From the NCBI GenBank assembly GCA_964587855.1, contig CAZPLT010000004.1, forward strand, positions 1-52,827: a DNA stretch of 52,827 bases, in the 5' to 3' direction. Both the position numbers and the translations under genes were made by a program. This DNA is from an uncultured Muribaculaceae bacterium (GTDB lineage: Bacteria; Pseudomonadota; Alphaproteobacteria; Rs-D84). Below, piece by piece: positions 1,750-47,872 of this stretch. The notes below the pieces were generated by a model. The model searched no databases. It saw only the letters and a program-made list of their open reading frames with translations, and was not told where the DNA came from. The stretch's first letter is position 1, and the number at the start of each line of letters is the position of its first letter.

Positions 1750-1777
1750 TTCACAATTTATGCGGTTATGATATAAT
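1750..1777 (+). promoter_or_regulatory. sigma70-like promoter (TTCACA-16-TATAAT) for the 1804 gene
   Basis: -35 at 1750-1755 and -10 TATAAT at 1772-1777. Strong RBS AGAGGAAGGGG lies just before the ATG at 1804. Confidence 0.45.
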
Positions 1778-1803: not shown

Positions 1804-3792
1804 ATGAAAAACCAATTTTTTGGATATTTTGCAGCTGTTTTGGGTACAATTTTAGTTGCTCCAGTCCATGCTGATCCAATCGCTGGATATGGACAGGTAA
1901 CACCTGTGACAAGCACTGCATCTACTGCTCAGTCCCCACGTGCGACGTCCACGCAACGTAGTCGTAAATCTGCTGAAAAAAATAAATCCAATGTTAATAA
2001 TGCTGTTGTAGCAAGAAGTGTTTCTTCAAGAAGTACCACCGCTTCTCGTTCTACTGCGCAAGCATCTAAAAACGTGGTTTCTCGTAGTAGTGGCAGTACT
2101 GCTGCTGCATCATCTCGTGCAACAAGTCGTGCCGTACGCTCGCGTGCCGCAACTATTGGTGCTACTGGTTCTACAGCCAGGGTTTCAATTTCTAGTGCAG
2201 CAGGAACCCGAGTTAGTGTAAGCGGTACGTCTTCTACATTGGCCAGTAAATTATATACTGGTACTTACTCGAACATTATTGATCCAACAACTGGTTTGAT
2301 TTCAGCCGATGCTTATAGCAATTGCGTGGAATCTTACTATACATGTATGGATGAAATTTGTACTGCACGTAATCCGGGACAACGCCGTTGTGCATGTGCA
2401 GGCCGTGTCAAAACATTTGCAAACGTAGAATCTCAATTACAAACCGCAAAAGAAGATTTATTAAAAGTTTCTGGGCAATTATCTTTGTTAATTTCAACCA
2501 AGGGTAAAGATGTAACAGATGCATTTACTTTGACAGAAGCAGAAAAAGTTTTGAATTGTGTTTCTTGGCGCGATGCCAAGACAGCAGGCACAGAATCAGA
2601 TTGGTGTGAAAGTCATACATTGCTGGCTGGTACCACTAGCTGCAGCAGTTATGCTGGTCCACCTGATTTTGTATCAGACTATTGCTCTAGCGAAGATTTT
2701 GTTTTGGGTGGCTCTGACTGGATGGATGTATTGAATGGTTCTGATTCCGATATATTATCAGGATTGGAAACTTATGCAGATACGATTAACGAAGTTAATG
2801 TTATAACCGCGGATGACTCGGACAGTTTGTGGTCTTCGTATATGAATGTTAGTGATATAGTTGGTGAATTAGATGGTACGGGAACAATAACAGATCTTTC
2901 GTCAGATACATTGGCCACAATGTGGGGATATGACTTGTTTGCATATGCTCATAATAATGTATGTAACCGAGTTTTGAATTCATGCTTTAATGGAATTTAT
3001 GAAGCATGCGGAAGTCATGATGGAACAACTGGCCCATATAATTATAATAATACTATAACCATAGATAACGACAGTTCGGATTTGACCTTTGTTGAAGCAA
3101 GTGCATCAACAACTACAAGTACTGCAACTTGTTTTGGTTATTCTTCGACCAGCGGCGATCCTTATTCAACATTACGTCGTCCAATTGCTAATTCTCGTCG
3201 CAGCATATTACAAAAATATGCGCTGGATGCTAATGCTGATTGCGATACTTATGGGGAAAAGTTAAAAACCCAGGCGACAAATATGGCGTATCAAAAAATT
3301 GCCGCTACACAATATCTTCAGAAAAAACGTTTAGAGTTTGCACAAGAAGAAGAGGTTGCAATCGCAACAGAATTGGCAGGGGCTAAAGAATATTATCGTA
3401 ATTGTGTAAATGAAGTTTATGATTGCTATGATCAACAAACCAGAACGAATCCAACATGGACAGCAGCACGTATAAAGAATTATTGTGCTCAAAGCGCAGA
3501 ATCTCCAAGCTGCTATAAAACAATGATATGTGATCAGGAAGTTCAAGTACTTATTGATCTTGCAGATAACATAACGTGTAATGATACTTTAGATTGGGAT
3601 AATAATACATGTAGAAACATCGTTCTGTTATCAGAAATCCTGAATGGAACGGGTGCGGCCGCAGTAGCAACGGGTAGTGAAGTAACAGCAAACTCTGCAG
3701 GATTACGCGAATACTGTTTGCAAGAAACGCCGGGTGTATATGGCGCAGGTAGTATTCGTAATTTCGGAGTTGATTGGGGCCCAGGATTTTAA
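1804..3792 (+). CDS. secreted cysteine-rich protein, unknown family (paralogue A)
   Basis: Strong RBS and signal peptide (MKNQFFGYFAAVLGTILVAPVHA). About 150 aa of Cys-free basic Ser/Thr/Ala/Arg-rich low complexity follow. Then come C-x6-C-x4-C-x9-C-x-C, a coiled coil, an acidic Ser/Asp tract and repeated C-x6-C units. I hand-counted 22 Cys, all after about aa 170. Confidence 0.85.
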   Translation: MKNQFFGYFAAVLGTILVAPVHADPIAGYGQVTPVTSTASTAQSPRATSTQRSRKSAEKNKSNVNNAVVARSVSSRSTTASRSTAQASKNVVSRSSGSTAAASSRATSRAVRSRAATIGATGSTARVSISSAAGTRVSVSGTSSTLASKLYTGTYSNIIDPTTGLISADAYSNCVESYYTCMDEICTARNPGQRRCACAGRVKTFANVESQLQTAKEDLLKVSGQLSLLISTKGKDVTDAFTLTEAEKVLNCVSWRDAKTAGTESDWCESHTLLAGTTSCSSYAGPPDFVSDYCSSEDFVLGGSDWMDVLNGSDSDILSGLETYADTINEVNVITADDSDSLWSSYMNVSDIVGELDGTGTITDLSSDTLATMWGYDLFAYAHNNVCNRVLNSCFNGIYEACGSHDGTTGPYNYNNTITIDNDSSDLTFVEASASTTTSTATCFGYSSTSGDPYSTLRRPIANSRRSILQKYALDANADCDTYGEKLKTQATNMAYQKIAATQYLQKKRLEFAQEEEVAIATELAGAKEYYRNCVNEVYDCYDQQTRTNPTWTAARIKNYCAQSAESPSCYKTMICDQEVQVLIDLADNITCNDTLDWDNNTCRNIVLLSEILNGTGAAAVATGSEVTANSAGLREYCLQETPGVYGAGSIRNFGVDWGPGF

Positions 3793-3813
3793 TTGAAAGA
3801 TAATAAAGAGCAA

Positions 3814-6138
3814 ATGATGGGTTTTTTACATTCATATGTGAAAAAAATAATCACGCTTGGCGCGCATGTTGTTTTTGCTCTTTTTGTTTTTGAAAATGCG
3901 TATGCTGCAGAAGTTAGTAGAGCAATTCCGGGCAAGGCAAATATTGTCGCCCAACAATCTGCAACAGAAACGACCGATAATGATAATATCAAATCTATAA
4001 GTCAACGTTCTGCAACGCCAGTAGTGGCAAGAACTGCAGCAGTAGCATCAAGAACGGCAACTAGTGCTGCCCCCAGAGAATCATTGAATGAAACTGCACG
4101 CCAGGTTGGTCGTTCTTCTAGGACAGAAGCAGCCAGTTTGAATTCTTCTGCGCCAGTTCGTCGTGCTGGAATTTCATTGCGTCCAACAACGGCAGAGGTT
4201 GGCGGGCGTGCAACAATTGTTGGTACTAATATTCAAACTGGTTCTAATATGAGTTCTGAAAATCGCCGTTTAACATCACGGGCTGCAACGGTTGGTCCGT
4301 CTGGTGTGGTGTCTACATCTGCTGGCAGTGATATAGAAAGTTCGAATAATATAACAGAATCATGTATTGCACAATATACAGATTGTATGGATCAATTTTG
4401 TTCAGTTATAGATGCAAATCAAAAAAGATGTGCGTGCAGTAATCGTCTCTCTTCTTATTCAAAGGTAGCATCTGCTGTAAAAGAAGCCAATACTCAATTA
4501 AATGATGTTGCTCAACGTATTCGTTATGTTGGATTATCTGCTGATGAAATCACCGCTATTATGAGTGCAACCGAGGCAGAAGAAGCATTAGAAAGAACGA
4601 AAGACACCACAGAATCTCGTAATATGTTGGATGAAATTGAAAAGCTTATTAAATCACCAGAAACAGCAACCAGTTCCAGCAGCAGTACTTCATTGGATTT
4701 AGATATTAGTTTTGATGCATCGGCAGATCCAGCAGATATGTTTAGTTTATCTGACAGTTCCAGTGATTCATTTTCTAGTTTACGTGGAACAGATCTTTAT
4801 AATTCAGCAAAAAAAAGATGTCAATCAATATTAACCTCTTGTAAATCAAAAGGTGCTGATATGTCCCAGGTCCAGGGTCGTTATGATATAGCAATTGATA
4901 AAGATTGTATATCGTATGAAACTGGTTTGGAAAAGATGAATCAAACCCTGCGCACGAATGTACGCAGTGCAACGCAAATGTTGCAAAAAGCACGCTTGGC
5001 GGTTTTGGATAATCATAATACTTATGATGCCAAAGGTTGTGTGGGTGCTTTAGAAGACTGTATGCAAGATGATATGGTTTGTGGCAGTGATTATTCAAAA
5101 TGTTTAGATCCTACAAAACGTTATATAGATGAAAATGGCGAAGTTGTTCTGGGACAAAATATTTCCAAGATCAGGGATATGATGGAGAATTTTGATAATT
5201 CTTCTATAGATGCTACATTTATTAGCAATGCATGGAGTATGTCCAGTATTACAAACTGTGATATATCGCCAAATAATAATGGTAAATGTATTGTAAAATA
5301 TCTTTTGGGAAAAATCGGAATGACGGATTCTACCAGTTCTGGTTTATGCCGACCAGTTCTAGAAAAATGTCAAAAGCAGACATATGATAGCAATGGAAGA
5401 TATAATTCTAAAAATTCAATAGTAGTTAATTATATTCAACGTGCTATGACTAATATTCGTGCAGATCAGGAAAAAATTATTTCTGATTATGCGTCCAGTT
5501 GTATGGCAGATATTGCGACATGCTATTCTAAACAGGTTACACAGATTAACGCATGGTCATCAAATGCGAATGTGCAAAATGTTTATTCAGTGTTAAAGGG
5601 CGCATGCCGTAATGTTGCGCTGACATGCAGTTATGCTGTATTTGCTGCAGACACAGGAATTGATGGTTGCCCAACAGAACAATTAATAACCTATCCATCT
5701 GAAACCGCATCAGATTCGTTACGCCAAAGCATTTGTATAGAAAATATTTCCGATATATTCTATCAATCAATGCTGTGCCCAGATTATTCTGTATGGGTGG
5801 CCACCGCGGGAGCAATTGGCAGTCTATATAGCTCTGGAACCAATGTTTATGTTAATGAACGTTGTATTTGCCAAGATGGGTATGGCGTGGACGATGGTGA
5901 ATGTATACAGTGTCCAACAGGGTACGAATTTAATTCCGCGTGTAATTATGCTAATGAATCAGTTGGTTGCCCGATTATTGGATGCGGTTGCCCATCTACA
6001 ACACCATATTGGGATAATGAAGATGAAGAATGTGTTGCTGTGTGTCCAACGGGAATACATGTTAACCCTAATAATAATGTTTGTTGCCCTTCTTCGACTC
6101 CATCTTGGAATAGTTTAACGGAAGTTTGCGAAGAATAA
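3814..6138 (+). CDS. secreted cysteine-rich protein, unknown family (paralogue B) with EGF/furin-like Cys-repeat tail
   Basis: Same architecture and collinear motifs as 1804..3792. The frame opens at TTG 3793, right after the upstream stop. ATG 3814, preceded by AAAGAG, is the likelier start. Hydrophobic signal: HVVFALFVFENAYA. Confidence 0.85.
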   Translation: MMGFLHSYVKKIITLGAHVVFALFVFENAYAAEVSRAIPGKANIVAQQSATETTDNDNIKSISQRSATPVVARTAAVASRTATSAAPRESLNETARQVGRSSRTEAASLNSSAPVRRAGISLRPTTAEVGGRATIVGTNIQTGSNMSSENRRLTSRAATVGPSGVVSTSAGSDIESSNNITESCIAQYTDCMDQFCSVIDANQKRCACSNRLSSYSKVASAVKEANTQLNDVAQRIRYVGLSADEITAIMSATEAEEALERTKDTTESRNMLDEIEKLIKSPETATSSSSSTSLDLDISFDASADPADMFSLSDSSSDSFSSLRGTDLYNSAKKRCQSILTSCKSKGADMSQVQGRYDIAIDKDCISYETGLEKMNQTLRTNVRSATQMLQKARLAVLDNHNTYDAKGCVGALEDCMQDDMVCGSDYSKCLDPTKRYIDENGEVVLGQNISKIRDMMENFDNSSIDATFISNAWSMSSITNCDISPNNNGKCIVKYLLGKIGMTDSTSSGLCRPVLEKCQKQTYDSNGRYNSKNSIVVNYIQRAMTNIRADQEKIISDYASSCMADIATCYSKQVTQINAWSSNANVQNVYSVLKGACRNVALTCSYAVFAADTGIDGCPTEQLITYPSETASDSLRQSICIENISDIFYQSMLCPDYSVWVATAGAIGSLYSSGTNVYVNERCICQDGYGVDDGECIQCPTGYEFNSACNYANESVGCPIIGCGCPSTTPYWDNEDEECVAVCPTGIHVNPNNNVCCPSSTPSWNSLTEVCEE

Positions 6139-7746: not shown

Positions 7747-8205
7747 ATGAAAGAACAAAGCGGGCGTAGTTTAATTGAAATGTTGGGGGTCATGGCAATA
7801 GCTGGGGTTATGACAGCTGGCGCAATCAAAATGTATCAGGTTGTTCGTACCAGACAAGTTCATATGATGGCCGCAGAAAAAATGAAAACAGTTGCATTAA
7901 ATACAAAATTATTATATGCAGCGCGCAGTAACTATGCTGGAATATCTATAGATTATTTGATCAAGTCTGGGGTAATGAGCTGTGGAAAATCGCCATTGCC
8001 GGGCACAATCTTTTCATTTACAGAAAATCCTGGCAGCAAAGAATTCGCAATGGTTTTTTCAGGTTTAGATTATAAAGATTGTATATGGATGACGACACTT
8101 AAAACAGATTGGGCATCCAAGGTTAGCGTTAATGGATATTTTGAATCTGCCAGTACGTATTGCAAAGAAAACGAAAAAAACGAAGTTCAAGTTTGGGTGA
8201 AATGA
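7747..8205 (+). CDS. type IV pilin / pseudopilin-like protein (class III signal peptide)
   Basis: N-terminus MKEQSG|RSLIEMLGVMAIAGVMTAGAI has a short basic leader, Gly at -1, Glu at +5 and a hydrophobic helix. Cysteines in the C-terminal half are as in pilin disulfide loops. About 150 aa. Confidence 0.7.
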   Translation: MKEQSGRSLIEMLGVMAIAGVMTAGAIKMYQVVRTRQVHMMAAEKMKTVALNTKLLYAARSNYAGISIDYLIKSGVMSCGKSPLPGTIFSFTENPGSKEFAMVFSGLDYKDCIWMTTLKTDWASKVSVNGYFESASTYCKENEKNEVQVWVK

Positions 8206-9670: not shown

Positions 9671-10393
9671 ATGAAAAAACTCTGGTGTATTTTAGGGATA
9701 GTGTTATTTACAGGCAATCTTTATGCCTTGGATACCCCGGATTTTGAAACTTACGAGAATATTGCTATTCAACATCAACCAGAATCTTTGATTGAAACGG
9801 ATGATTTATTTCTTAATCCGCAGACCCCGACAGAAAATGTATGGCTTGTGGATGAAAATGATTTATATTCTGGGTGCCCTTTCTTTTCAACACGGGAATG
9901 TGATATTTGGAAAAGAAAACCCGCAGTAATAGAAACCATAGAATTGCCAGAACGTCATATAGAAAAAGCGTGTGATTACAAAAAAGAATTATTGAAAAGA
10001 TATCAAACATTAATGCAGGCTGCGCGTTCATGTTGTGTTTCTGGAATGGAGTATAGATTAAAACAATCTGGCGCAAGTAAAAGCTTAATTTATAAATTTA
10101 TGATAGATGATGCGAACTTTTATAGATTTGGTGATCGGTGTTTAATGATGTCAGATGAAAAATTGGAAACCAAATATCCAAACAGTGCAACCGCACAAAT
10201 GGTATCAGATGTTCGTGATACATGCTTGTGTAAACGGCGTGATTATTTCAGCGCTTTGCTTGCACCATTTGATGATTTTTCAGATGAAGAATATGAATAT
10301 TCTTATCAAGATGGATTAAAACGTGAATTAAATGCTTCTATTACAGAAGATGTGAATTTTATAAAAGAGCAATTAGAAAACTGCCCAAAATAA
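9671..10393 (+). CDS. secreted cysteine-rich hypothetical protein
   Basis: Signal peptide MKKLWCILGIVLFTGNLYA. Multiple Cys, including CC and C-x-C-K-R-R. No recognisable family. Flanked by its own terminators. Confidence 0.7.
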   Translation: MKKLWCILGIVLFTGNLYALDTPDFETYENIAIQHQPESLIETDDLFLNPQTPTENVWLVDENDLYSGCPFFSTRECDIWKRKPAVIETIELPERHIEKACDYKKELLKRYQTLMQAARSCCVSGMEYRLKQSGASKSLIYKFMIDDANFYRFGDRCLMMSDEKLETKYPNSATAQMVSDVRDTCLCKRRDYFSALLAPFDDFSDEEYEYSYQDGLKRELNASITEDVNFIKEQLENCPK

Positions 10394-12914: not shown

Positions 12915-13625
12915 TTATTGTTCTTTCTTTGTCCCGACTCTTGAATAGTCATCAAGATAACGACCGATACTTGCATTGAATGTATTTAAACAATTTGCTA
13001 AATTCCCTTTATCAATATGTGATGCATCTTTGCATGCGGTTTCTATCCATGCTTGGTCTTTTGGATCAGTTACATAAATTCTATAGGTATTAAGTTCATT
13101 TTCTAATTGTTTACGAACTTTTGTCATACTTGACTCGTTTCTTATCAAGCTAATATTCCTTTGGACGCATTTTAATGTTTCTTGGGTTGCGCCACTTTGG
13201 GTTAAACAATTTTGAACCCCCGCAATAATTACAGATTTATCATCAGATTTAGAACTGCTGCTGGATGAATCATCTGTTGCGTTGCCACCGGCGGCTTGGA
13301 CCTTGGCGGTCAGGATAGATTTTTGCAATTGGGTTTTAAGACGCTTTACCGTTACATCCAGAAAGTCATATTGCTTTTTCATTTGCTGTGTCATAATTGT
13401 AGTTTTCAAAGCGATAATATCGTTCATCTCTTGTTTATCGGCCGGATTATATGTTTCCCCAATGTTATAAGCATGTGTAGTGCATAGTGCGACAGCTTGA
13501 TTAATAAATTCATTATTATCATTAGTACAGCCATTATCAGCAGCGCGTACCGAAACAGTCGTCAAAATGGCGAAAGTAAAAACAGAAAAGATTAAAAATA
13601 TTTTTTTCATTTTTTTACAATTCAT
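12915..13625 (-). CDS. secreted helical protein, unknown family (VirB5-sized; function unknown)
   Basis: Signal peptide (MKKIFLIFSVFTFAILTTVSVRA), coiled-coil-like stretches and a poly-Ser linker. Its start overlaps the upstream stop (TAATG). Confidence 0.75.
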   Translation of the reverse strand: MNCKKMKKIFLIFSVFTFAILTTVSVRAADNGCTNDNNEFINQAVALCTTHAYNIGETYNPADKQEMNDIIALKTTIMTQQMKKQYDFLDVTVKRLKTQLQKSILTAKVQAAGGNATDDSSSSSSKSDDKSVIIAGVQNCLTQSGATQETLKCVQRNISLIRNESSMTKVRKQLENELNTYRIYVTDPKDQAWIETACKDASHIDKGNLANCLNTFNASIGRYLDDYSRVGTKKEQ

Positions 13626-15472
13626 TATCCACCAGTATTAAACATATTTGTTTTATTTCCATTGCCGGCCCCAGGATTAATGCTAAGATCTGGGACATTG
13701 AGAGAAGGGGCTTTCAGTTGCGGTACAAAAGAAGGGGCTTTCAGTTGCGGTACAAAAGAAGGGGCTTTCAGTTGCGGTACAAACACCACTCTATTAGAAT
13801 TATTCGGGGTTACTGTTGTCGTACTGGCGTTTATATTATAATTAAGTCCTGATGCTGAATTATTGCCAGGTACAGAGAATTGTTTATCTAAATTATTTAT
13901 GTCTACATTAGAATTATTCGGGGTTACTGTTGTCGTACTGGCGTTTATATTATAATTAAGTCCTGATGCTGAATTATTGCCAGGTACAGAGAATTGTTTA
14001 TCTAAATTATTTATGTCTACACATAAACCAGAATCAGGCAAACGTCTACGTTGAGTCATTGTTCTAAGTTTACCTATTATTTCTTCATCATTAACTCGGC
14101 ACCATTTTTTTGCATCCTCGGGATCTTTTACGACATTTGGTGCATCTTGGTTAATAATTCTTTTCAGGGTTTCTACATCAATGCTGGCTTGTTTTTTACG
14201 ATTTTTAAATAATTTAGAATTATCAATTGCATCAGATGCGCAAGCAACGCGAATACCGCCACTGCTGCCAGCATCCATATACAACCAGTTTTGTTGAACT
14301 TCTTCTTGGTTATTAAGCATATTTAACAAAGTACAATGGGGTTGTTGTGATGCTACACGACGGTTACCCTGATAATCTTCATAAGCAATTTGATAATATC
14401 CACGTCTTGTAGTATTGTCCCATTCGCACCCATCTGGAAGTTTATTCTCATTATCTGGTCTGCATGTATCACACATATATTTTCCCCAAACATTACATGA
14501 ACCGTTCAGCATCATATAAATATCGGTAATATCCACCCCCAGACTTTGTGCCAGAATAAGTGCATCATATAATTCATCCAAAACATTTTCGTATGGATCA
14601 AAAAATTTATTTGCTTTATCTTTGAATGCTCTTACACGTTTTGGGCCCGTGCAATTATCACCATTAACATCACACCCAGCATAATCAAAAACATTTTGCA
14701 TTGTGTTTTTTAAATCTTTCATTGAAACTTCGGCATCTTCAACTTTGGTTAATATTTGACCACCAATTTGCTCGCGGGCTAAAACATCAGCAGATACACC
14801 AGCAGCAGCAGCATTTGCAATGGCCACATCTGGCGCAGTTGCCGCGGCCACGGCTGCTTCGGCTTGCTGTGCCGCTAATTGTTTTTGTTCTTCTAATGCT
14901 TGCTGGACAGCAGCAGCAGATTGAGCAGATTGTTCCTGCATCTGTTGTTGCATCTGTGTCATTTGTTGTTGCATTTGCTCCATCTGAGCACTGGATTGAG
15001 CACTGGCAGCTTGGGCTGCACTTGCGGCGGCGGCGGCTTGGGCTTCGTTAGCTTTTGCATTCGCACTGCTAACCATTTGTGCGGCCAATGTTTGAATCAG
15101 TTCATCGCCATATTTTTTACATGAAGAATTACTTTGTACACACCCAGTGACAATTGGGATAGCTAAATCCATGCTGGTACAACCAGCACATTTAGGTTGA
15201 GCGCAGCGTAAAATTAAAGAATTACAATTTCCAAAATCAGCTGTTGCACCCTGTTGACCAATGGGATTTTGATTCATCATATTATTCCATTGATTGTTAT
15301 TTAATGCGCCAGTATTACCAGTAAAAGCAGTACGATTTCCAGACGATCCCCCCGAGTTTTCAAATGCAGGTCCCGGTCCACCAATCGGCGAATCCGCACG
15401 CGCAAAAGGTTCTGCGCATAAAGTAAAGCACAGAGCACAAAATACAGATAAAAATCTGGTTGAAAATTTCAT
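13625..15472 (-). CDS. secreted Gln/Ala-rich coiled-coil, cysteine-rich protein with C-terminal tandem repeats, unknown family
   Basis: Signal peptide MKFSTRFLSVFCALCFTLCAEPFARA. Gly/Asn/Gln-rich region, C-x6-C-x4-C-x2-C module and a long Q/A-rich tract (QQQMTQMQQQMQEQ). Then a Cys-rich globular part, 2x38-aa and 3x9-aa perfect repeats. ATG 15472 is preferred over 15499. Confidence 0.8.
   Translation of the reverse strand: MKFSTRFLSVFCALCFTLCAEPFARADSPIGGPGPAFENSGGSSGNRTAFTGNTGALNNNQWNNMMNQNPIGQQGATADFGNCNSLILRCAQPKCAGCTSMDLAIPIVTGCVQSNSSCKKYGDELIQTLAAQMVSSANAKANEAQAAAAASAAQAASAQSSAQMEQMQQQMTQMQQQMQEQSAQSAAAVQQALEEQKQLAAQQAEAAVAAATAPDVAIANAAAAGVSADVLAREQIGGQILTKVEDAEVSMKDLKNTMQNVFDYAGCDVNGDNCTGPKRVRAFKDKANKFFDPYENVLDELYDALILAQSLGVDITDIYMMLNGSCNVWGKYMCDTCRPDNENKLPDGCEWDNTTRRGYYQIAYEDYQGNRRVASQQPHCTLLNMLNNQEEVQQNWLYMDAGSSGGIRVACASDAIDNSKLFKNRKKQASIDVETLKRIINQDAPNVVKDPEDAKKWCRVNDEEIIGKLRTMTQRRRLPDSGLCVDINNLDKQFSVPGNNSASGLNYNINASTTTVTPNNSNVDINNLDKQFSVPGNNSASGLNYNINASTTTVTPNNSNRVVFVPQLKAPSFVPQLKAPSFVPQLKAPSLNVPDLSINPGAGNGNKTNMFNTGG
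13703..13783. repeat. 3 x 27-bp perfect tandem repeat (codes FVPQLKAPS x3)
   Basis: AGAAGGGGCTTTCAGTTGCGGTACAAA occurs three times head to tail, in frame. Confidence 0.95.
13793..14020. repeat. 2 x 114-bp perfect tandem repeat (codes a 38-aa unit VDINNLDKQFSVPGNNSASGLNYNINASTTTVTPNNSN)
   Basis: 13793-13906 is identical to 13907-14020 by direct reading, in frame. Confidence 0.95.
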
Positions 15473-15546
15473 ATTCTCTCTATGGATAAAGTTTATCATA
15501 AAATATAAAAAAATGAAAGAAAAAATAGTGGTTATTACAATAAAAT

Positions 15547-15571
15547 AAAATCCGCATAACTGCGGATTTTA
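15547..15571 (-). terminator. terminator/attenuator-like hairpin straight after virB10-like stop
   Basis: AAAATCCGCA-GTTA-TGCGGATTTT overlaps the TAA and is followed by ATTTTATT on the minus strand. It could be partial termination within the operon. Confidence 0.5.
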
Positions 15572-17905
15572 TTTTATTGGTGGAAAGCAATCGCCACCGG
15601 AACTGGGGCAACAATTAAATCCTTGTTCTCCCATGTCTGTATAAACTTCGCCGGAACAACATCCGTTTACATCTGGTGCATTTCCGTCTTCGCAAGTTAA
15701 TACTTGATTATTTTCTTCGGCTGGTGCTTTTTCTTTTGCAAATGGATTTTTTATACTTCCATCAGTGTTATATTCCAATCCCAAAACTTGTTCATTATAC
15801 TCTTTCGATCCCTTGGTTAATGCTTGGCCACCAGTACCAACAATTCCGGTCTTTTGTTGATTAGTATATACTGCAGCTTGTTTTGCATTGTTGATTGCCT
15901 GGTATTGTGTTGATTGGCAATACGCTACAACAGTGCGATAATCATAACCATCATCTGCGATGGATTGTGCCGTAACACCCGAAGCCAATTGCCCATTTTG
16001 TCCGCAGTATTTTTGAATATTAAATCCACGAACCTGCCCAATCCACGACGGATCTTTATAATTAACCCAAGGGCCATCAGAAGTTTCGGATGTGCTAATT
16101 GGCGGTGCTTTATGTACAGCATACTCAGATGGTTTTAATTTACAATTTTCCACTCCATTAACTTTGTCACAGAAATTAACAACTAAATCTTTTGGAGAAT
16201 AAACAGTTATACGTGTTCCAGCCGCTATAGAAAATGGAGGAACCGTATTATCCAGCATATCAACCATTAATTTTTGGGCAACTTTATTCCATGTATTAAT
16301 AATTTCATTTTTTGCAAGTTCCGAAGAACGAACCTGACCGCTTTGTGTAACGGTATTATTATCCCAATCAATTTGATTAACAAATTTATCCGATATTGGT
16401 GCAATTAAATTAACTGCTGCGGGTACGACTGCGGTTATCATTGGCATAATAAATTGTTCCATGTAATCGGTGCTTCCGTGTCCGGGAACCCCAACACGAC
16501 CCTGGCTGTCGCCGGCGAACGGTTCATTACCAGCAAAACTGAATTCCACACCATCTGGACGAACAAAGCGATACCATTTAATTTGCATACGCCCAATTGC
16601 CTTATACGGTCCGGGCATTTCGCCAGTTAAATATCCCAACATTAATGTTCCGGTTGGAACAATAATTGTGCGTCCATTATCGGAATAAACATGTCTGTCT
16701 ACGGTTGCTTGGACCGGTAACATTGATTGACGTTCAATTTTTGCATCTGCACGAATTTCATTAACAATTGTTGCGGGTATTGGTTTATATTGGCGTAATA
16801 CAAAAGAACGATCATAAGGGTCAGTGGATACGAATGCATCGCCTGCCTCGGCAGAAGAAGGAATTAAATTACTGGTTGGTTTATATGCAAACGCCGGATT
16901 AATTTCAGACAGACGTTTTGCGCCCCCCGCTGCGTTTGGTAATTCTGCGGCAGCACCAGCTTTTTGATGTGCCATATTTTTTTCGCGAGTTACAGCAGGA
17001 TTTGATAATACCGGCAATTTTGCGCCAGATGATATAAACCCGATACGATCAAAATCAGAACCTATTTTTTTGCTGGGATTTTTAAGATCTGTAATAAATC
17101 CAGTATCTGGATTGTATTCACCAATCGGTTGTGTGCAATTAGTATCAGAAAAAGGATGAAATAAATAGTGTCCAGCTTGGGGGCGAATCCAACCAATTTG
17201 TTTTCCATAAGTATCATATCCACCAAAAGAAAATTCATAACAACGTTCAGAATCTAGTTCGGATGTTGATTTACGTTCTTCTTTACGTTCCGGACCAACA
17301 TGATTTTTCATTGGTGGTGCAATGGTATCAACTGCTTCGGATACAGGATTTATTTCGGCTTTTTGTTCTGCAACAACTTTTGGTTCTTGTTTTACAGGTT
17401 CTGGTGGTTGAACAAATGTGGAAAGAGCAACAGGTATCTCGATTGTTTTTGCCATTTTTGCTTCGGCGCTGGCAGAATAATATTCGATCAAAATTTTAAT
17501 ACCTGTTTGTGTTAAATCAGTTCTGGGTATCCATACTAATTCTGCAGTACATGGAACCTCAGGAGAGATTTCACCCATATTAGTACATGTAGTATTTATG
17601 CTTAACCCGCTAATCGTTTCTGATAATTTTATACTGGGAATTATGGCAGAAGTATTAGGTGTAATTTTAATAGACTGAATAAGTTTTTCCCCTATTTTTG
17701 AATCTAGCCATTCTATTTCAGCCGGATCAGTTGTAATCTCTAGTGCGATTGTTGGGGCTTTTACGGTTTTGTCTTTTTTATTATGACCCAATAATAAAAC
17801 TAATAATACAATCACTACCAAGAATGCGGAAAATAAAACAATCCACAAAACATGCCGTGGCACGTTTTTTTTAATTTCGGAAATAGTTGTTGTTATCGTA
17901 GCCAA
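15569..17905 (-). CDS. virB10: VirB10/TrbI-family T4SS core protein, enlarged (778 aa) with N-proximal extra domain and Cys-rich C-terminal extension
   Basis: N-terminal TM (VLWIVLFSAFLVVIVLLVLLL) and a Pro-rich linker (VQPPEPVKQEPKV). The TrbI/VirB10 barrel region runs from IPATIVNEIRAD to RITVYSPKDLVVNF, via VPTGTLMLGY, WYRFVRPDGVEF and GDSQGRVGVPGH. The only available start is TTG. Confidence 0.8.
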   Translation of the reverse strand: MATITTTISEIKKNVPRHVLWIVLFSAFLVVIVLLVLLLGHNKKDKTVKAPTIALEITTDPAEIEWLDSKIGEKLIQSIKITPNTSAIIPSIKLSETISGLSINTTCTNMGEISPEVPCTAELVWIPRTDLTQTGIKILIEYYSASAEAKMAKTIEIPVALSTFVQPPEPVKQEPKVVAEQKAEINPVSEAVDTIAPPMKNHVGPERKEERKSTSELDSERCYEFSFGGYDTYGKQIGWIRPQAGHYLFHPFSDTNCTQPIGEYNPDTGFITDLKNPSKKIGSDFDRIGFISSGAKLPVLSNPAVTREKNMAHQKAGAAAELPNAAGGAKRLSEINPAFAYKPTSNLIPSSAEAGDAFVSTDPYDRSFVLRQYKPIPATIVNEIRADAKIERQSMLPVQATVDRHVYSDNGRTIIVPTGTLMLGYLTGEMPGPYKAIGRMQIKWYRFVRPDGVEFSFAGNEPFAGDSQGRVGVPGHGSTDYMEQFIMPMITAVVPAAVNLIAPISDKFVNQIDWDNNTVTQSGQVRSSELAKNEIINTWNKVAQKLMVDMLDNTVPPFSIAAGTRITVYSPKDLVVNFCDKVNGVENCKLKPSEYAVHKAPPISTSETSDGPWVNYKDPSWIGQVRGFNIQKYCGQNGQLASGVTAQSIADDGYDYRTVVAYCQSTQYQAINNAKQAAVYTNQQKTGIVGTGGQALTKGSKEYNEQVLGLEYNTDGSIKNPFAKEKAPAEENNQVLTCEDGNAPDVNGCCSGEVYTDMGEQGFNCCPSSGGDCFPPIK

Positions 17906-17953
17906 TTTTTAACTATGGGTTGAATTTATTTTTATCCCATATCCCTTTATCAT

Positions 17954-19426
17954 TTATTGCAACCGAACTACGTTACAGCTGGTACCTTGGAATTTGGTCA
18001 AACTGTTGCATAATTTTTCTGCAGTTTCCATATCTGCTATTGGACCAACACGCAAACGATAAAGTCTGGCATTAGCACCCGTTGCACCTAAATCACCGAC
18101 GCCTGCTTCATCGACTGCGAAATAAACCATACCTTTATACGGGGTCAAAAGTCCCTGGCCATCTTCACCACTGAATTTGGACAATAATTTGGTCCAATAA
18201 TCATTAAGTGCTTTGACCGAAGTATCGGATTTAAGTTCCACAGCAATGCCTGCTTGGTTAGATGATATAACCGGTATATCACTTTGTGGTAAGAACGCAC
18301 CAGTTGTGTTACGTGTTGTTGGTAACATGTTAACACCACTTGCTCCACCAGAAGTATCACTGGTTTGCATCGTCATTGGTATTTGGAATCCATTTGAATT
18401 GATGTTTTGTTTGTACGTAACTCCATAATCCATAGACTCATTCCCATAACCTACGTTTTGTAAGGATTGCGTTGATTGTATGCTTTGCATTACATTAGAT
18501 TCTGCCAAAGCCATAACGCTGGAAGTATCTGCAATCAAGAAAGGTTTAGAGCGACGTTTAATACAAACGATTCGTTGACCACTGCGCAGAACCATATCAC
18601 CGACTGCCTCTACAATCAAAAGACGTCCATTTTCACCATCAGTGCGGAAACCGACTGGCGATTCGCCACCTTCAACCAAAATAGAAACAACTGGCCGCTG
18701 GGTCATGGCGATAACTTTGTCGCCAAAGTCAATATAAGTAAAGATTCTGTCGCGCCATACGCGCTCTGGCGCAATTACAAAATCATCTGGATTTGGAACG
18801 AAAATATCCAAATCAAAACGGAATTCAGATGGATCAATTTTCATTGTTTTTATCCAACCATAATCTTCACCATCAACACCAACAGTAGAAGTTTTTGTTT
18901 TGCTGGGGAATATAGAATTCATACCAGATGTTTGACCATTACTGGAAGAAGTTGTTGCGCTGGATAAAGTAGAACGACCATCTAGGACGATATCAACCTG
19001 GGAATATGAGATTTCGCTGGAGTTAGCAGGTTCGCTGCGCAGATAGAATAAATATTTATTTCCAGATTTGCCGGTAACGATTAAATTTGTATCGCTGCCC
19101 TGATTTGTTGCAACTGGCGTCATATAAATTGTCCGACCACCTTTCTGCGGTTCAAACTGGAATAAACCATCGTTTCCGATAACACCATCTTCTATTGCTT
19201 CGCCTTCGGGCAAGTTAATCATAGTAACCATGCCATTACGTAATTTTATTGGTAATACAGTACCTGGGGCCCATGTCAATTGTGCATAGCCAGGTTTAGA
19301 ACTGCCAGTTGCCATGTTTGCTTCTGGATTATCCCATGCATCTTGAACGCCATGATCTTCAGCACTGGCAACGCCAATACAAAGAACAAAGAGCAAAGAA
19401 CAAAGAGCAAATAATTTATTTTTCAT
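17954..19426 (-). CDS. virB9: VirB9/TrbG/CagX-family T4SS core protein fused to a C-terminal SPOR domain
   Basis: Signal peptide. N-domain pattern (VTMINLPEGEAIEDGVIGN...TNLIVTGKSGNKYLFYLRS). C-domain (VIAPERVWRDRIFTYIDFG...PVVSILVEGGESPVGFR). The last 100 aa or so match the SPOR consensus (ARLYRLRVGPIADMETAEKLCNSLTKFQGTSCNVV). Confidence 0.85.
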   Translation of the reverse strand: MKNKLFALCSLLFVLCIGVASAEDHGVQDAWDNPEANMATGSSKPGYAQLTWAPGTVLPIKLRNGMVTMINLPEGEAIEDGVIGNDGLFQFEPQKGGRTIYMTPVATNQGSDTNLIVTGKSGNKYLFYLRSEPANSSEISYSQVDIVLDGRSTLSSATTSSSNGQTSGMNSIFPSKTKTSTVGVDGEDYGWIKTMKIDPSEFRFDLDIFVPNPDDFVIAPERVWRDRIFTYIDFGDKVIAMTQRPVVSILVEGGESPVGFRTDGENGRLLIVEAVGDMVLRSGQRIVCIKRRSKPFLIADTSSVMALAESNVMQSIQSTQSLQNVGYGNESMDYGVTYKQNINSNGFQIPMTMQTSDTSGGASGVNMLPTTRNTTGAFLPQSDIPVISSNQAGIAVELKSDTSVKALNDYWTKLLSKFSGEDGQGLLTPYKGMVYFAVDEAGVGDLGATGANARLYRLRVGPIADMETAEKLCNSLTKFQGTSCNVVRLQ

Positions 19427-19454
19427 ATTATATCCTTCCTAACCTAAAAATACG

Positions 19455-20117
19455 CTATTGCGCAAATTTTAGAACATTCAGTGGATCTCCATCCCCTGAT
19501 TCTATTCTGTATTCTGAGACTTGTAGTCCCAGAGGATTTTTTTGTTTTGCATTCCATTTTATTTCTGGTGCATAAGTCAAACCTATTACAATAGTAAAAT
19601 CTTTTGGCATAGTTTGTCCAGAGCTTTCTGATGTACAAAACCATCTGAATCGAACCGCAAATTTATCATTTCCGCGTGTTTCTATAACTGGGGATTGAAA
19701 TTCTACTGGACAAGAAAATGCAGGGTCTGGGGAATCATGCATAAATGCTGACCATAATTGTGTTTCGGTAAAGTTGGCATAAATCTCGCGTGAAGACCAA
19801 ATATAAACAGGACCATCAGGACTGCGCCATTTATAGCGCATAACATTGATATTTGGGATTATTTCATTACGTGCACGAATATATTCTTTGATAAAATTTT
19901 CTTTGTAATCAGTCAGGGTTTTATCATTCACAGGTAATGGTTGAATTTCAACCACTTGGGTTTCGGCGCGATGTGAATTTAAAAGAAAAATTTGAGTTTT
20001 GGTTAAAGGGAACATATTTGATACTGCAAAAACAAGGGCTAATGCAGTAGCAATAGCAGCAGCCAAAACAAAAGACATCATACGGGCAGTAAATGTATTA
20101 GGATCCAGTATAGCCAT
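19455..20117 (-). CDS. virB8: VirB8-family T4SS protein (canonical, with NPxG motif)
   Basis: Bitopic, with a short N-terminus and TM MMSFVLAAAIATALALVFAV. About 220 aa, with the hallmark NPLGLQVSEY near the C-terminus. Sits directly upstream of virB9. Confidence 0.8.
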   Translation of the reverse strand: MAILDPNTFTARMMSFVLAAAIATALALVFAVSNMFPLTKTQIFLLNSHRAETQVVEIQPLPVNDKTLTDYKENFIKEYIRARNEIIPNINVMRYKWRSPDGPVYIWSSREIYANFTETQLWSAFMHDSPDPAFSCPVEFQSPVIETRGNDKFAVRFRWFCTSESSGQTMPKDFTIVIGLTYAPEIKWNAKQKNPLGLQVSEYRIESGDGDPLNVLKFAQ

Positions 20118-34604: not shown

Positions 34605-34620
34605 ATACTATATATTGTGT
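34605..34620 (+). promoter_or_regulatory. NrdR box (operator of ribonucleotide reductase genes)
   Basis: ATACTATATATTGTGT matches 15 of 16 positions of the published NrdR-box consensus acaCwAtATaTwGtgt. It lies about 110 nt upstream of the nrdJ ATG. Confidence 0.6.
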
Positions 34621-34728
34621 TATAAAGATAAAAATAACCACTACCTGTTGATTTTTTGTGATTCGGAGAGGGACGCAAAATCGGCAGAAAAAGCGAAAAA
34701 TCGCGAAATTTATAAAGGGCGTCCACAA

Positions 34729-36600
34729 ATGAACGAATCACTAAGGCTTTTATCCGATTTAGTATATTATATGAAATACAGCCGGTATATTCCGGAATTA
34801 AAACGTCGTGAAACTTGGCCTGAAACGGTTCAACGTAATAAAGAAATGCATTTGGCTAAATATGCTAATATTCCAGAAATTCACCCATTTATTGAAAAAG
34901 CTTATGAATTTGTAATGGATAAAAAAATTTTGCCATCTGGTCGTTCTTTGCAATTTGGTGGCCAGGGTATTTTGGATAAAAACAACAAGATTTATAATTG
35001 TTCGGCATTGGGGATTGATTCTGTTCGTGCTTTTTCGGATTTAATGTATTTATTACTTTGTGGTTGTGGCGTCGGAATTTCTGTACGCCATATTTTTATA
35101 GATAGATTGCCATTGTTGGCCAAAAAATCGGGAAAAACTGTGAAATTCAAACCAGATGATTCTATTGAAGGTTGGGCAGATTGCTTGAAAACATTATTAC
35201 ATGCAGCATTTGAAACAGGGGATGATGTGGAATTTGATTTTTCAAACATCAGACCAAAGGGCGCTTTGATAAAATCTTCGCTTTGTAGCGCACCTGGTCC
35301 AGAACCTTTGGGGGAAATGTTAGACAAGGTTAAAGAATTTTTGGATAAAAAAATTACAGAGCAAGATTATAAAATGTCATCACTGGATTGCTTTGATTTG
35401 TGTTGCTTGGCGGCAGATGCGGTTTTGTCTGGCGGAATTCGTCGTAGCGCGCTGATTACTTTGTTTGATAAAGATGATGAATTGATGTTGCACGCGAAAG
35501 AGGGCGAATGGTGGAAAACTGCCCCTTGGCGTGGGAACTCTAATAACTCGGTTCAGTTTGATCGTGGCAACACAACCAAAGAAGAATTTGATAAGATATT
35601 TAAACAATGCAAAGATTCTGAATGTGGGGAACCAGGATTTGTTTGGACTGATAATCCAGAATGGTGTGTAAATCCATGTTGTGAAATTTCATTCCCCAGC
35701 CGTGGTTTTTGTAACTTGTCTTCTATAAATCTGGGCAGTGTTGAATCCCAGGAAGATTTTAATGAACGTGCTTATTGGTGCTCGGTTATTGGAACACTTC
35801 AGGCGGGATATACAGACTTGAAATATGTTGAACCAAAATGGAAAGAAAACGCCGAGGATATGTCTTTGATTGGTGTTTCTATTACCGGAATTGCATCTCA
35901 TCCTGATATTACACAGCTCAGTTTTGAAGAAGCTGTATCACACGTCAAGAAAGCTAACGAAGAAGTCGCAAAAATACTGGGGATCAAGCCAGCTGACAGA
36001 TTGACCAATGTAAAACCAGATGGTACTGGTGCGCCGATTTTGGGTACCAGCAGTGGAATTCACAGTTGGCATGCTAAACATTACTATCGTCGTATTCGCG
36101 TAAATAAAGTTGAACCAATTTACGAATATATGTTAAAGAATTTCCCTGATTTGATTGAAGATGATAAACGTAAATCAACAGATGGGGTTATATCGCTTGT
36201 AATCCGCGCACCCGAGGGCGCAGTTACACGCAGAAACGAAACAGCTATAGAATTTTTGGAACGTGTAAAATATATATTTGAACATTGGGTAAAGCCTGGG
36301 CACATCCGTGGTGATAACTATAACAATGTATCTTGCACTTGTAATGTAAAGAATCATGAATGGGACGAGGTTCGCGAATGGATGTGGGAAAATCGCGACA
36401 ATTACACTGGAATATCTTTGTTGCCTTATTCTGACGCCAGTTATGATCAGGCCCCATTTGAAGACACTAACGAAGATGTTTACAAAGAATTCGCAGCTCA
36501 AGATTACAAATTTGAATTTGATAAAATTAAAGAAGAAAAAAATTGGGTAAACTTTGGTGCGGCCATGGCATGTACTGGTGGCGGATGCGAGGTAATATAA
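34729..36600 (+). CDS. nrdJ: adenosylcobalamin-dependent ribonucleotide reductase, class II, monomeric (RTPR-like)
   Basis: The N-terminus YYMKYSRYIPELKRRETWPETVQR resembles the L. leichmannii RTPR start (YKRTYARWLPEKGRSENWDETVKR, from memory). Active-site NPCCEI...FCNLSSINL. C-terminal redox Cys pair CTGGGCEVI. Confidence 0.85.
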   Translation: MNESLRLLSDLVYYMKYSRYIPELKRRETWPETVQRNKEMHLAKYANIPEIHPFIEKAYEFVMDKKILPSGRSLQFGGQGILDKNNKIYNCSALGIDSVRAFSDLMYLLLCGCGVGISVRHIFIDRLPLLAKKSGKTVKFKPDDSIEGWADCLKTLLHAAFETGDDVEFDFSNIRPKGALIKSSLCSAPGPEPLGEMLDKVKEFLDKKITEQDYKMSSLDCFDLCCLAADAVLSGGIRRSALITLFDKDDELMLHAKEGEWWKTAPWRGNSNNSVQFDRGNTTKEEFDKIFKQCKDSECGEPGFVWTDNPEWCVNPCCEISFPSRGFCNLSSINLGSVESQEDFNERAYWCSVIGTLQAGYTDLKYVEPKWKENAEDMSLIGVSITGIASHPDITQLSFEEAVSHVKKANEEVAKILGIKPADRLTNVKPDGTGAPILGTSSGIHSWHAKHYYRRIRVNKVEPIYEYMLKNFPDLIEDDKRKSTDGVISLVIRAPEGAVTRRNETAIEFLERVKYIFEHWVKPGHIRGDNYNNVSCTCNVKNHEWDEVREWMWENRDNYTGISLLPYSDASYDQAPFEDTNEDVYKEFAAQDYKFEFDKIKEEKNWVNFGAAMACTGGGCEVI

Positions 36601-36601
36601 T

Positions 36602-37057
36602 ATGAAACTGAAAGTTGTATTTGAAAGTGAAAAAATTCGTGATGCGTATATGCTGGGCGAAAAAAAATTCGTCTGGTCTGATGGTAATTCTGGAATAGAT
36701 TTACGCAGCGCCGAAGATACTTTTGAATTACAACCCGGGGAAAGAAAAATAGTTAGTTCTGGTATCAGAACCCAGTTGAATGAAAATAATGATTTGTGGG
36801 AAATTCAATTACGCCCCAGATCCGGAATGAATGCCAAGGGTATTTATGTAGCATTTGGAACGATTGATTATTCTTATACTGGTGTTATGGGCGTTGTTAT
36901 GACAAATCAAACGGCTGCGCCATTCAAAGTCGAATTTGGGGATAGAATTGCGCAAATAGTTGTTTGCCCAATATCAAAACCAGAAATAGAAATTGTAGAA
37001 AAACTAAATGAAACAGATAGAAACACAGGTGGATTTGGATCGACAGGTATAAAATAA
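36602..37057 (+). CDS. dut: dUTP diphosphatase (trimeric dUTPase)
   Basis: Motifs GIDLRS, RPRSG, GTIDYSYTG, RIAQ and C-terminal GGFGSTG. Confidence 0.9.
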   Translation: MKLKVVFESEKIRDAYMLGEKKFVWSDGNSGIDLRSAEDTFELQPGERKIVSSGIRTQLNENNDLWEIQLRPRSGMNAKGIYVAFGTIDYSYTGVMGVVMTNQTAAPFKVEFGDRIAQIVVCPISKPEIEIVEKLNETDRNTGGFGSTGIK

Positions 37058-37086
37058 CAAAAATACATAGGGAAGGGGATTGTATC

Positions 37087-37909: not shown

Positions 37910-38419
37910 ATGAAGTTTAGCAAAATTATTTTGGGATTGGGATTATTAATCTTTACCCATGGCGCATTTGCAGCACAAAAAATAGAAATTTATTATTCCC
38001 CATCTTGCCCACATTGTCATCATGCATTGGGCTTTATTGATCAAACATTAAGACCTGAATATAAAAATCTAGAAGTTGTAAAAGTTAACGTAATGGAACA
38101 ACAAAATCGTCCAAATTTTATAGAGGTTCTTAAAAAATGTAAATTTCAATCTGGTGGTGTTCCAGTCTTGGTCGTAAATGGAAAATGTTTCCAGGGTTAT
38201 GCAGAGTTTATGAATACAGACATTATGGCTGCATTGGGACCAGCAGACGCAAAAGCATCGGAAGAGCAAATCGCAACAGATAAAAAAGCAGAACCAGCTG
38301 AATTGCCTGAAGAACCAATTGTAAAACCAGATAATGGAAACTCTGTAATGTTGTATGTTTTATTTGGATTACTGATTGCAGCATTATTTGCGGTTATGTT
38401 TGTAAAAAAGAAAAAATAA
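37910..38419 (+). CDS. exported thioredoxin/glutaredoxin-fold thiol-disulfide oxidoreductase (CPHC), C-terminally membrane-anchored
   Basis: Signal peptide. CPHC active site, the same tetrad as DsbA. GGVPVLVVNG cis-Pro-type loop. C-terminal TM VMLYVLFGLLIAALFAVMFV. Confidence 0.75.
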   Translation: MKFSKIILGLGLLIFTHGAFAAQKIEIYYSPSCPHCHHALGFIDQTLRPEYKNLEVVKVNVMEQQNRPNFIEVLKKCKFQSGGVPVLVVNGKCFQGYAEFMNTDIMAALGPADAKASEEQIATDKKAEPAELPEEPIVKPDNGNSVMLYVLFGLLIAALFAVMFVKKKK

Positions 38420-47862: not shown

Positions 47863-47872
47863 GGAAAAATAA

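Follow-up and report, generated by a model that had tools for sequence, protein, structure and literature searches.

Two adjacent genes encode cysteine-rich proteins with predicted signal peptides

We analyzed a 52,827-nucleotide stretch of DNA (hereafter the window; contig CAZPLT010000004.1, assembly GCA_964587855.1) from a member of the alphaproteobacterial order Rs-D84. Two adjacent plus-strand genes near its start, here named A and B, encode the cysteine-rich proteins that are the subject of this study. Gene A (1804..3792, +) encodes 662 amino acids with 22 cysteines, and gene B (3814..6138, +) encodes 773 or 774 amino acids with 36 cysteines; the corresponding families are called A (alignment A2) and B (alignment A1). 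A preliminary description of the locus, made from the sequence without database searches, had termed both proteins 'giant', which is an overstatement at 662 and approximately 773 amino acids.

The reading frame of B (3793..6138, +) is open from a TTG that directly follows the stop codon of A, and would give 781 amino acids if counted from this TTG. The database copy of B has 773 amino acids, with ATG 3817 as the start. ATG 3814 is another candidate and matches the figure of about 774 amino acids in the preliminary description. An AAAGAG ribosome-binding site lies directly 5' of ATG 3814/3817, which puts the true intergenic distance at 22–25 nt. The earlier statement that the second gene begins at or just after the stop of the first thus holds for the open frame, but translation likely starts 22–25 nt downstream. 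The start codon of A, ATG 1804, is preceded by the ribosome-binding site AAGAGGAAGGGG and by a promoter-like site recognized by consensus match alone (1750..1777, +; TTCACA-16-TATAAT, 11/12, extended -10), which comes after a terminator-like hairpin (1471–1489) of the preceding esterase gene. A terminator-like site was sought between A and B and none was found. With a single strong promoter-like site 5' of A and a short, terminator-free gap, A and B look like a single transcription unit.

Protein A begins with a predicted signal peptide (1804..1872, +; amino acids 1–23), which is the only hydrophobic segment of the protein. Cleavage is predicted between VHA and DPIA, and the A-D-P at this site is invariant or nearly so across the A family. 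The next region (1873..2298, +; amino acids 24–165) is basic, with an isoelectric point (pI) of 11.9, free of cysteine, and rich in serine (22%), alanine (15%), threonine (15%), and arginine (9%). It is disordered in the AlphaFold2 (AF2) model, with a predicted local distance difference test (pLDDT) score below 50. Inside it, a strand-like motif, ARVSISSAAGTRVSVSGT (2176–2229, +; pattern ARVS-x-x-G-x-A-IR), is conserved in the family, with 56% mean identity versus 35% over the remaining disordered region. A cysteine module, CVESYYTCMDEICTARNPGQRRCAC (2323..2397, +; amino acids 174–198), has the spacing C-x6-C-MD-x2-C-x9-C-x-C and is followed by a helix (amino acids 202–232); module and helix together form the best-conserved segment of the A family, at 73% mean pairwise identity. 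An acidic Ser/Asp tract (2686..2913, +; amino acids 295–370) contains 17 D/E and no K/R and is mostly of low confidence in the model. A helical Cys-rich core (2962..3447, +) was delimited from the AF2 model, the motif positions, and the A–B profile alignments. It carries CNRVLNSC (2962–2985, +; amino acid 387), a modeled helix of approximately 90 residues (3175–3447, +; amino acids 458–548) on which ATQYLQKKRL lies (3304–3333, +; amino acid 501), and CVNEVYDC (3403–3426, +; amino acid 534). Protein A has three C-x6-C units. Our recount of its cysteines agrees with the 22 counted by hand in the preliminary description, and all of them lie downstream of residue 173.

Protein B likewise starts with a predicted signal peptide (3817..3906, +; amino acids 1–30), with cleavage between AYA and AEVSRA, followed by a basic region (3907..4326, +; pI 11.4) that is disordered in the AF2 model. 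The conserved motif inside this region, RRAGISLRPTTAEVGGRATIVGTNIQTGSN (4159–4248, +), has 66% mean identity versus 31% elsewhere in the region, and its strand-like pattern is RRAG-x-TLRPSTAEVGGRATI. The cysteine module of B, CIAQYTDCMDQFCSVIDANQKRCAC (4363..4437, +; amino acids 183–207), has the same C-x6-C-MD-x2-C-x9-C-x-C spacing and is also followed by a helix; the two are indel-free over 80 amino acids and, at 81% mean pairwise identity, make up the best-conserved segment of B. An acidic Ser-rich tract (4645..4773, +; amino acids 277–319) has low pLDDT. The helical core (4327..5781, +; amino acids 171–655) holds seven C-x6-C units, two of which are overlapped by an eighth (C415-x6-C422). 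The protein ends in Cys-rich beta-hairpin repeats (5782..6135, +; amino acids 656–773) that are strands in the AF2 model and show a weak internal repeat. This tail is where the family varies (38% identity); its length ranges from 63 to 323 amino acids in the alignment and exceeds 1500 amino acids in the longest representatives. All 36 cysteines of B lie past the disordered region.

In both proteins, the composition thus bears out the Cys-free, basic Ser/Thr/Ala/Arg-rich stretch of about 150 residues (140–150 by our delimitation) and the acidic Ser/Asp tracts described earlier. The disordered regions have pIs of 11.4–11.9 and the cores pIs of 4.3–4.5. Each protein has one hydrophobic segment, at the N-terminus and ending in an A-x-A-type site, and such sites are conserved among orthologues; this sequence pattern suggests that A and B are Sec-exported through a cleavable signal peptide. 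The AF2 models are mainly helical, with a mean pLDDT of 62–64 overall and values of 70–90 in the cores.

A and B are anciently diverged paralogues

Comparison of A with B by BLASTP gave an E value of 4e-15, with 24% identity over 274 columns. Profiles of the two families, built from 36 or 37 orthologues each, were compared by hhalign and matched with a probability of 98.4% and an E value of 7.6e-15. With alternative alignments enabled, the main alignment paired residues 1–250 of A with residues 8–258 of B, and three weaker ones paired A343–394 with B299–342 (E = 0.077), A468–518 with B352–402 (E = 0.0015), and A532–555 with B560–583 (E = 0.007). None of these three downstream alignments is significant alone; their collinear order is consistent with an old duplication and strong divergence since. 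By these sequence comparisons A and B are anciently diverged paralogues, with strict homology limited to the N-terminal ~250 amino acids. The proposal of a tandem pair with one collinear architecture therefore stands with significance for this N-terminal part, but only as weak collinear matches for the rest.

The quoted shared motifs (the module, the C-x6-C units, and ATQ[YM]LQK[KA]RL) were all found and follow one another in identical order in A and B. RSRAATIGATGS in A (amino acids 112–123) corresponds to TSRAATVGPSGV in B (amino acids 153–164), and the C-x6-C-MD-x2-C-x9-C-x-C module (amino acids 174–198 of A and 183–207 of B) comes next. The further pairs are CNRVLNSC (A, amino acid 387) and CQSILTSC (B, amino acid 335), ATQYLQKKRL (A, amino acid 501) and ATQMLQKARL (B, amino acid 385), and CVNEVYDC (A, amino acid 534) and CVGALEDC (B, amino acid 408). 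In composition-preserving shuffles, the chance of the long Cys motif was 4e-5 for A and 4e-4 for B.

A and B match no known family

The preliminary description could name no family for the two proteins, and database searches gave the same outcome. In a Pfam scan with E values up to 1, A had no match at all and B a single spurious one, to GH39. Scans of Pfam, NCBIfam, and PHROGs with A, B, and three other proteins of the window described below (operon protein C, its partner p236, and a 240-amino-acid protein) gave no meaningful match; in PHROGs only marginal coiled-coil matches were seen (E ~1e-3), which does not identify A or B as phage structural proteins. Searches of PDB sequences with the profiles of the B, A, and operon-protein families (alignments A1, A2, and A3) and with the isolated module found nothing at E <0.1. 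The suggested AlphaFold and Foldseek check was run as well: searches of the A and B models against the PDB, and of B against BFVD, gave no match at E <0.02, and the best BFVD match of B had an E value of 0.027 and a TM-score below 0.1. The top Foldseek matches were generic long helices or small Cys repeats.

These results also agree with the earlier failure to recognize adhesin, autotransporter, RTX, or OmcB-type signatures. No Pfam match to autotransporter, two-partner, or intimin-type adhesins was obtained, and the AF2 models, made of helices and short hairpins, contain no barrel. No Pfam match to RTX-type substrates of type I secretion systems was found, and both proteins have an N-terminal signal-like segment. 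Neither matched OmcB/DUF11-type models in the Pfam scan.

Long-helix proteins among the weak Foldseek matches of both models included colicin Ia (E 1–3). Together with the signal peptides and the variable C-terminus of B, they could suggest that A and B are secreted effectors or toxins that act on a host or a competing cell and have long helical hairpins like those of pore-forming colicins. We regard this as most improbable: the colicin-type matches are far from significant (probability 0.06), no immunity-like small gene adjoins A or B, and toxins are rarely single-copy syntenic core genes at ~50–60% identity across an order.

The only coherent hint of kinship concerns the B tail, which weakly resembles furin-like or ephrin-receptor-like Cys repeats. 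Foldseek aligned the C-terminal repeats with the insulin receptor CR domain and the R-spondin (RSPO2 Fu1-Fu2) furin repeats (E ~1, probability <0.3), and EphA2 was the only, weak match of the B profile in the PDB (E = 0.96). PF07699 (Ephrin_rec_like) is recorded in one B orthologue (P0070) and weakly in another (P0421); the window B is below all Pfam thresholds. The likeness lies in the last ~120 amino acids of B, with their short beta-hairpins and closely spaced cysteines. These form a small variable appendage in B, however, and the conserved 480-amino-acid helical core has no counterpart in such proteins.

Other known systems are similar in general character. Chlamydiae have reduced genomes and live in obligate association with a host. 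Their OmcB is a large, Sec-exported, Cys-rich protein of the envelope, whose basic N-terminal segment is presumed to lie exposed and to attach to anionic glycans and whose remainder is cross-linked by disulfides. By this general description (Cys-rich, putatively exported, basic N-terminus, reduced-genome bacterium), A and B are like chlamydial OmcB/OmcA and the 60-kDa cysteine-rich protein. They are unrelated to OmcB in sequence and are predicted as mainly helical whereas OmcB is beta-rich, and Rs-D84, unlike the bacteria of the chlamydial system, keeps normal peptidoglycan genes. The twin-CxnC hairpins of the mitochondrial intermembrane space (CHCH, twin Cx9C/Cx3C) also have Cys pairs of fixed spacing on helices, apt for stapling adjacent helices by two disulfides in an oxidizing compartment outside the cytoplasm, but the spacing in A and B is 6 rather than 9 or 3, and A and B are ten times larger, bacterial, and without detected homology to them. 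The Helicobacter Hcp proteins, with Sel1-like repeats, are secreted, helical, disulfide-bridged bacterial proteins, as A and B are predicted to be, but A and B have no Sel1/TPR Pfam match and no Foldseek match.

Both families are widespread in Rs-D84

Homologous clusters, defined at 90% identity, numbered more than 1200 for A and more than 1000 for B and were typically 46–60% identical over nearly the full length (46–100% for homologues of A as a whole). All of the homologues are unnamed or annotated as 'hypothetical'. An exhaustive search of 50%-identity clusters with the B profile gave 774 matches at E <=1e-3, of which 310 reached E <=1e-30. The longest of these proteins, up to 2338 amino acids, consist of the B core followed by long C-terminal arrays with weak repeat matches, and one long B orthologue has a Listeria-Bacteroides repeat; a second shows a weak match of ephrin-receptor-like type. 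The 2338-amino-acid protein (locus L083, 1–9849) adjoins genes for a terminase, a ParB-methylase, Fic, and a ZorA-like protein with OmpA, a phage- and defense-type setting unlike the housekeeping setting seen elsewhere.

In a taxon scan with one genome per GTDB species, B relatives were present in 287 species genomes, and labels were taken from 80 of these. The 80 are metagenome-assembled genomes (MAGs) from human, rodent, ruminant, bird, and termite guts, labeled Alphaproteobacteria, Rickettsiales, or Candidatus Enterousia; they include a few plainly mislabeled bins and one chromosome of 716,531 bp. Records named 'uncultured Muribaculaceae', 'Bacteroides fragilis', or 'Lachnospiraceae bacterium' (L003, L004, L005, L013, L024, L041, L071, and P0273) are probably taxonomic mislabels of MAGs. 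The best-supported reading of this distribution is that A and B represent two uncharacterized families that are core to the order Rs-D84, which comprises Candidatus Enterousia and related gut bacteria with genomes of 0.7–1 Mb. Genomes of this lineage have been described as smaller than 1 Mb, lacking respiration and standard transporters, with incomplete glycolysis and with 'hypothetical membrane-bound proteins', and a partner-dependent lifestyle has been presumed (PMC12306168). In the literature on Enterousia/Rs-D84 we found no paper that names A or B proteins or any type IV secretion system (T4SS) in the lineage. Rs-D84 is common in human, livestock, rodent, bird, and termite guts, and these order-wide, putatively exported proteins are the most concrete molecular handles on its lifestyle. 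They might serve as antigens for imaging or cell sorting and as baits for a partner or ligand, and they are targets for structure determination that may hold a new disulfide-rich helical fold.

Linkage of A and B was counted over 64 loci with enough upstream flank. In 41 of the 64 (~64%), both genes have one orientation and A precedes B; they are then direct neighbors, which is the arrangement of the window clade, or ~0.75–1.3 kb apart, often with rplU-rpmA between them. On a 923-kb Enterousia-type contig, for example, rplU and rpmA occupy the A–B gap, and PagL is upstream of A. The closest relatives of the window share the order A, B, dnaX, prepilin-like gene, OmpA-like gene, skp, 240-amino-acid Cys-rich protein, lpxD. 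When every open reading frame (ORF) of the fetched loci and of the window was searched with hidden Markov models, no additional paralogues near B came up beyond A, B, C (624 amino acids), and p236 (236 amino acids).

Several observations were made on these neighboring genes. The type IV prepilin-like gene (7747–8205, +) has a G|RSLIE motif and an N_methyl Pfam match, and at its 3' end it runs into the beginning of the OmpA-like ORF. Conservation of the order dnaX, pilin, ompA, skp extends to two Enterousia-type loci (L049 and L060). The secreted Cys-rich protein between skp and lpxD (9671–10393, +; 240 amino acids, 10 cysteines, no Pfam match) is conserved in relatives and is close to the C/p236 pair in locus L031. 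Downstream of B on the 923-kb contig (L082, 15122–21722), five consecutive genes of ~400–480 amino acids without Pfam match, four on the minus strand and one on the plus strand, may be another lineage-specific family.

Membership of the operon protein in the A/B family is not supported

A partial T4SS operon (12915–20117, -) encodes virB8 (19455–20117, -), virB9 with a C-terminal SPOR domain (17954–19426, -), an unusually long virB10 (15569–17905, -; 778 amino acids, 14 cysteines), and then, in place of virB11/virD4, two unnamed secreted Cys-rich proteins. The first of these, operon protein C (13625–15499, -; 624 amino acids), lies downstream of virB10, and the second, p236 (12915–13625, -; 236 amino acids), is translationally coupled to C by a stop/start overlap. 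C and p236 are one fused ORF of ~740–760 amino acids in L003 (11956–14172) and L062 (2695–4977), and C is widely conserved, with more than 1100 clusters; it may represent a third large, uncharacterized, order-specific family beside A and B. Near the 3' end of its gene (13703–14021, -), tandem repeats of 114 nt (two copies) and 27 nt (three copies) are 100% identical, which points to a very recent expansion and a length-variable C-terminus.

The preliminary description noted that a C-x6-C-x4-C pattern recurs in this operon protein and took this as pointing to a single dispersed family, linked to the secretion apparatus, that would comprise A, B, and C. The pattern is indeed present, with a chance rate of ~1% in composition-preserving shuffles, but homology to A or B is not detectable. 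By hhalign, the operon-protein family matched the B profile with a probability of only 8.6% (E = 0.0039, in a different region) and the A profile with 1.7%, and the single operon-protein sequence gave E values of 0.11 and 0.17 against the two family profiles. A resemblance seen by eye, between CNSLILRC...SNSSCKKYGDELI in the operon protein and the second unit of A/B (CNRVLNSC...ANADCDTYGEKL), reached an hhalign E value of only 0.03 and is no more than a lead. We rejected the operon protein as a member of the A/B family on this profile comparison; only the C-x6-C-x4-C pattern is in common.

Gene order gave no more support to the proposed tie. No virB gene adjoins A or B in any of 80 B loci from other genomes. 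Only the closest relatives (L001, L003, and L005) have virB10 close to the Cys-rich genes, and the surroundings of B lack it in the remaining 77 of the 80 loci; the adjacency is thus a local gene-order feature. A single weak, apparent virB10 match in L057 was discarded, its surroundings being ABC-transporter genes and unnamed ORFs rather than T4SS genes. Orthologues of C adjoin leuS, an acyl-ACP thioesterase gene, skp, or A/B, without virB nearby, in L081, L031, L062, and L006.

That A, B, and C are T4SS accessory proteins or substrates, one family decorating or secreted by the VirB apparatus, is accordingly very unlikely in our view, and the claim of a family tied to secretion was dropped. 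It could draw on the ~1% chance rate of the shared pattern, on the position of the 624- and 236-amino-acid genes behind virB8-virB9-virB10 (same strand, ~70-nt gap, in the window and its closest relatives), and on the distance of ~7–9 kb between A/B and the operon; the unmatched profiles, the virB-free C orthologues, and the 0/80 count speak against it. VirB5/CagL-type surface and pilus proteins of T4SSs are comparable in being helical, secreted, and encoded in virB-type operons; the 624-amino-acid protein, too, comes behind virB10 in the window, but A and B lie outside the operon, the operon protein lacks similarity to their profiles, and the adjacency is lost in other lineages. The tempting link of A and B to type IV secretion is thereby removed as unsupported. 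C and p236 are near A/B in L006, L031, and L062; that A, B, and the operon protein recur close to one another although genome arrangements differ lends modest support to a joint function. C and p236 are thus possibly functional associates of A and B; family identity with A/B is not supported.

Conserved cysteines suggest disulfide bonds

The preliminary suggestion of a disulfide-locked extracytoplasmic fold is plausible on three grounds: near-invariant core cysteines, paired Cys loss, and an oxidoreductase in the window. Each core Cys column of the B family is substituted in only 0–3 of ~230–260 relatives. Two pairs among the few variable cysteines are mutual best partners in their pattern of loss, in counts that are inflated by sequence relatedness. 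C481 and C491 are both lost in 61 sequences, both kept in 148, and discordant in 18, and C618 and C640 are both lost in 38, both kept in 138, and discordant in 26; such pairwise loss fits disulfide partners. An exported thioredoxin-fold protein with a CPHC (DsbA-type) site is encoded at 37910..38419 (+). It has a signal peptide and a C-terminal membrane anchor, its gene adjoins a CvpA-family gene, and by its sequence features it is a candidate oxidase for the Cys-rich proteins.

Conserved cysteines could alternatively bind Zn, Fe, or Fe-S, for example in an extracytoplasmic redox or metal-storage protein of an anaerobe. Invariant cysteines are odd in number (21 in A and 29, invariant or nearly so, in B), the B tail contains C-x-C, CxxC, and CC motifs, and the habitat is anoxic, with no respiratory chain to reoxidize a DsbB-type system. 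We nevertheless consider metal binding improbable. No CxxCH, known metal-cluster spacing, or Pfam metal-binding domain is present, the specific paired loss of C481/C491 and C618/C640 suits disulfides better, an exported CPHC oxidoreductase is at hand, and the B tail resembles the disulfide-bonded furin-like repeats.

A proposed envelope or surface role for A and B

We propose that A and B are core proteins of Rs-D84 that are exported by Sec, fold mainly into helices stapled by disulfides, and reside in the envelope or at the surface; we give this reading a probability of roughly one half. After Sec export and cleavage of the signal peptide, the acidic, mostly helical core would be stapled by many disulfides, each C-x6-C unit setting two cysteines on the same helix face, with the periplasmic CPHC oxidoreductase available for the purpose. 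The mature proteins might then serve as structural components of the envelope or of the cell surface. The basic disordered N-terminal region with its strand-like motif could be a tether or docking element, with anionic envelope polymers or a partner protein as plausible targets, and the shared N-terminal Cys module may act as a common interaction or assembly domain. The length-variable C-terminal Cys-repeat array of B would be an exposed, fast-evolving binding part. Exposure of this tail is suggested by its 38% identity, by its length range of 63 to more than 1500 amino acids, and by the Listeria-Bacteroides and ephrin-receptor-like repeats in orthologues. The envelope-type neighbors in the window clade (prepilin-like gene, OmpA-like gene, skp, and lpxD) also count in favor of an envelope role.

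Several points weigh against this proposal. Confidence in the AF2 models is only moderate, and any mention of a 'novel fold' or of stapled helices is accordingly provisional. In the reducing gut lumen, the formation and upkeep of disulfides are in question, and the Cys evidence has the weaknesses given above (co-loss statistics inflated by relatedness, odd counts of invariant cysteines). The absence of respiratory chains in the lineage is a further problem for disulfide formation and reoxidation (PMC12306168). A and B have no recognizable outer-membrane translocation or anchoring domain, lipobox, or secretion-system signal, and surface exposure would therefore need an unknown route; the localization, like the adhesive or structural role, is a prediction, and this too must be set against the proposal. 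Finally, gene order is stable in reduced genomes, which makes the A–B linkage weak evidence for joint function.

The cleavable Sec signal predicted for both proteins and the lack of any outer-membrane export feature could instead indicate an unexposed, cross-linked periplasmic scaffold, an analogue of the chlamydial Cys-rich outer-membrane complex that would stiffen the envelope of a reduced-genome cell. The very high conservation of the cores across the order is in keeping with this, as are the envelope-biogenesis neighbors (OmpA, Skp, LpxD, and PagL), and the basic tail might attach to peptidoglycan or to the inner leaflet. The lineage keeps its peptidoglycan and rod-shape machinery (PMC12306168) and has MraY, FtsW, and MurG genes, however, and a substitute wall should thus be unneeded; the hypervariable, expandable C-terminal repeats of B are moreover typical of exposed proteins. 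We consider such a scaffold possible, if rather doubtful.

A bolder version of the surface proposal is that A and B, probably with C and p236, form a lineage-specific, disulfide-stapled helical fibril or attachment device of new fold with which Rs-D84/Enterousia cells would dock onto the surface of the partner cell or host on which they depend. We hold this to be speculative and unlikely as it stands. If it were true, the expandable Cys-repeat tip of B would set partner specificity.

Other features of the window

A 5S rRNA gene (165–279, +; Rfam 74.5 bits) is probably the end of an rRNA operon. Three consecutive ORFs of 227, 216, and 288 amino acids at 46529–48739 (+) have no Pfam match. Genes for a class II (B12-dependent) ribonucleotide reductase, a dUTPase, and a cobalamin adenosyltransferase stand in a row at 34615–37629 (+); this cluster is of nucleotide-salvage type, although the genome is said to lack nucleotide biosynthesis. 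At the edge of the window, a phage lysozyme gene (51067–51567, -) is followed by a gene for a T7-type head-to-tail connector or portal protein (51598–52827, -) that is cut by the window end, and the two together may represent a prophage or an assembly join.

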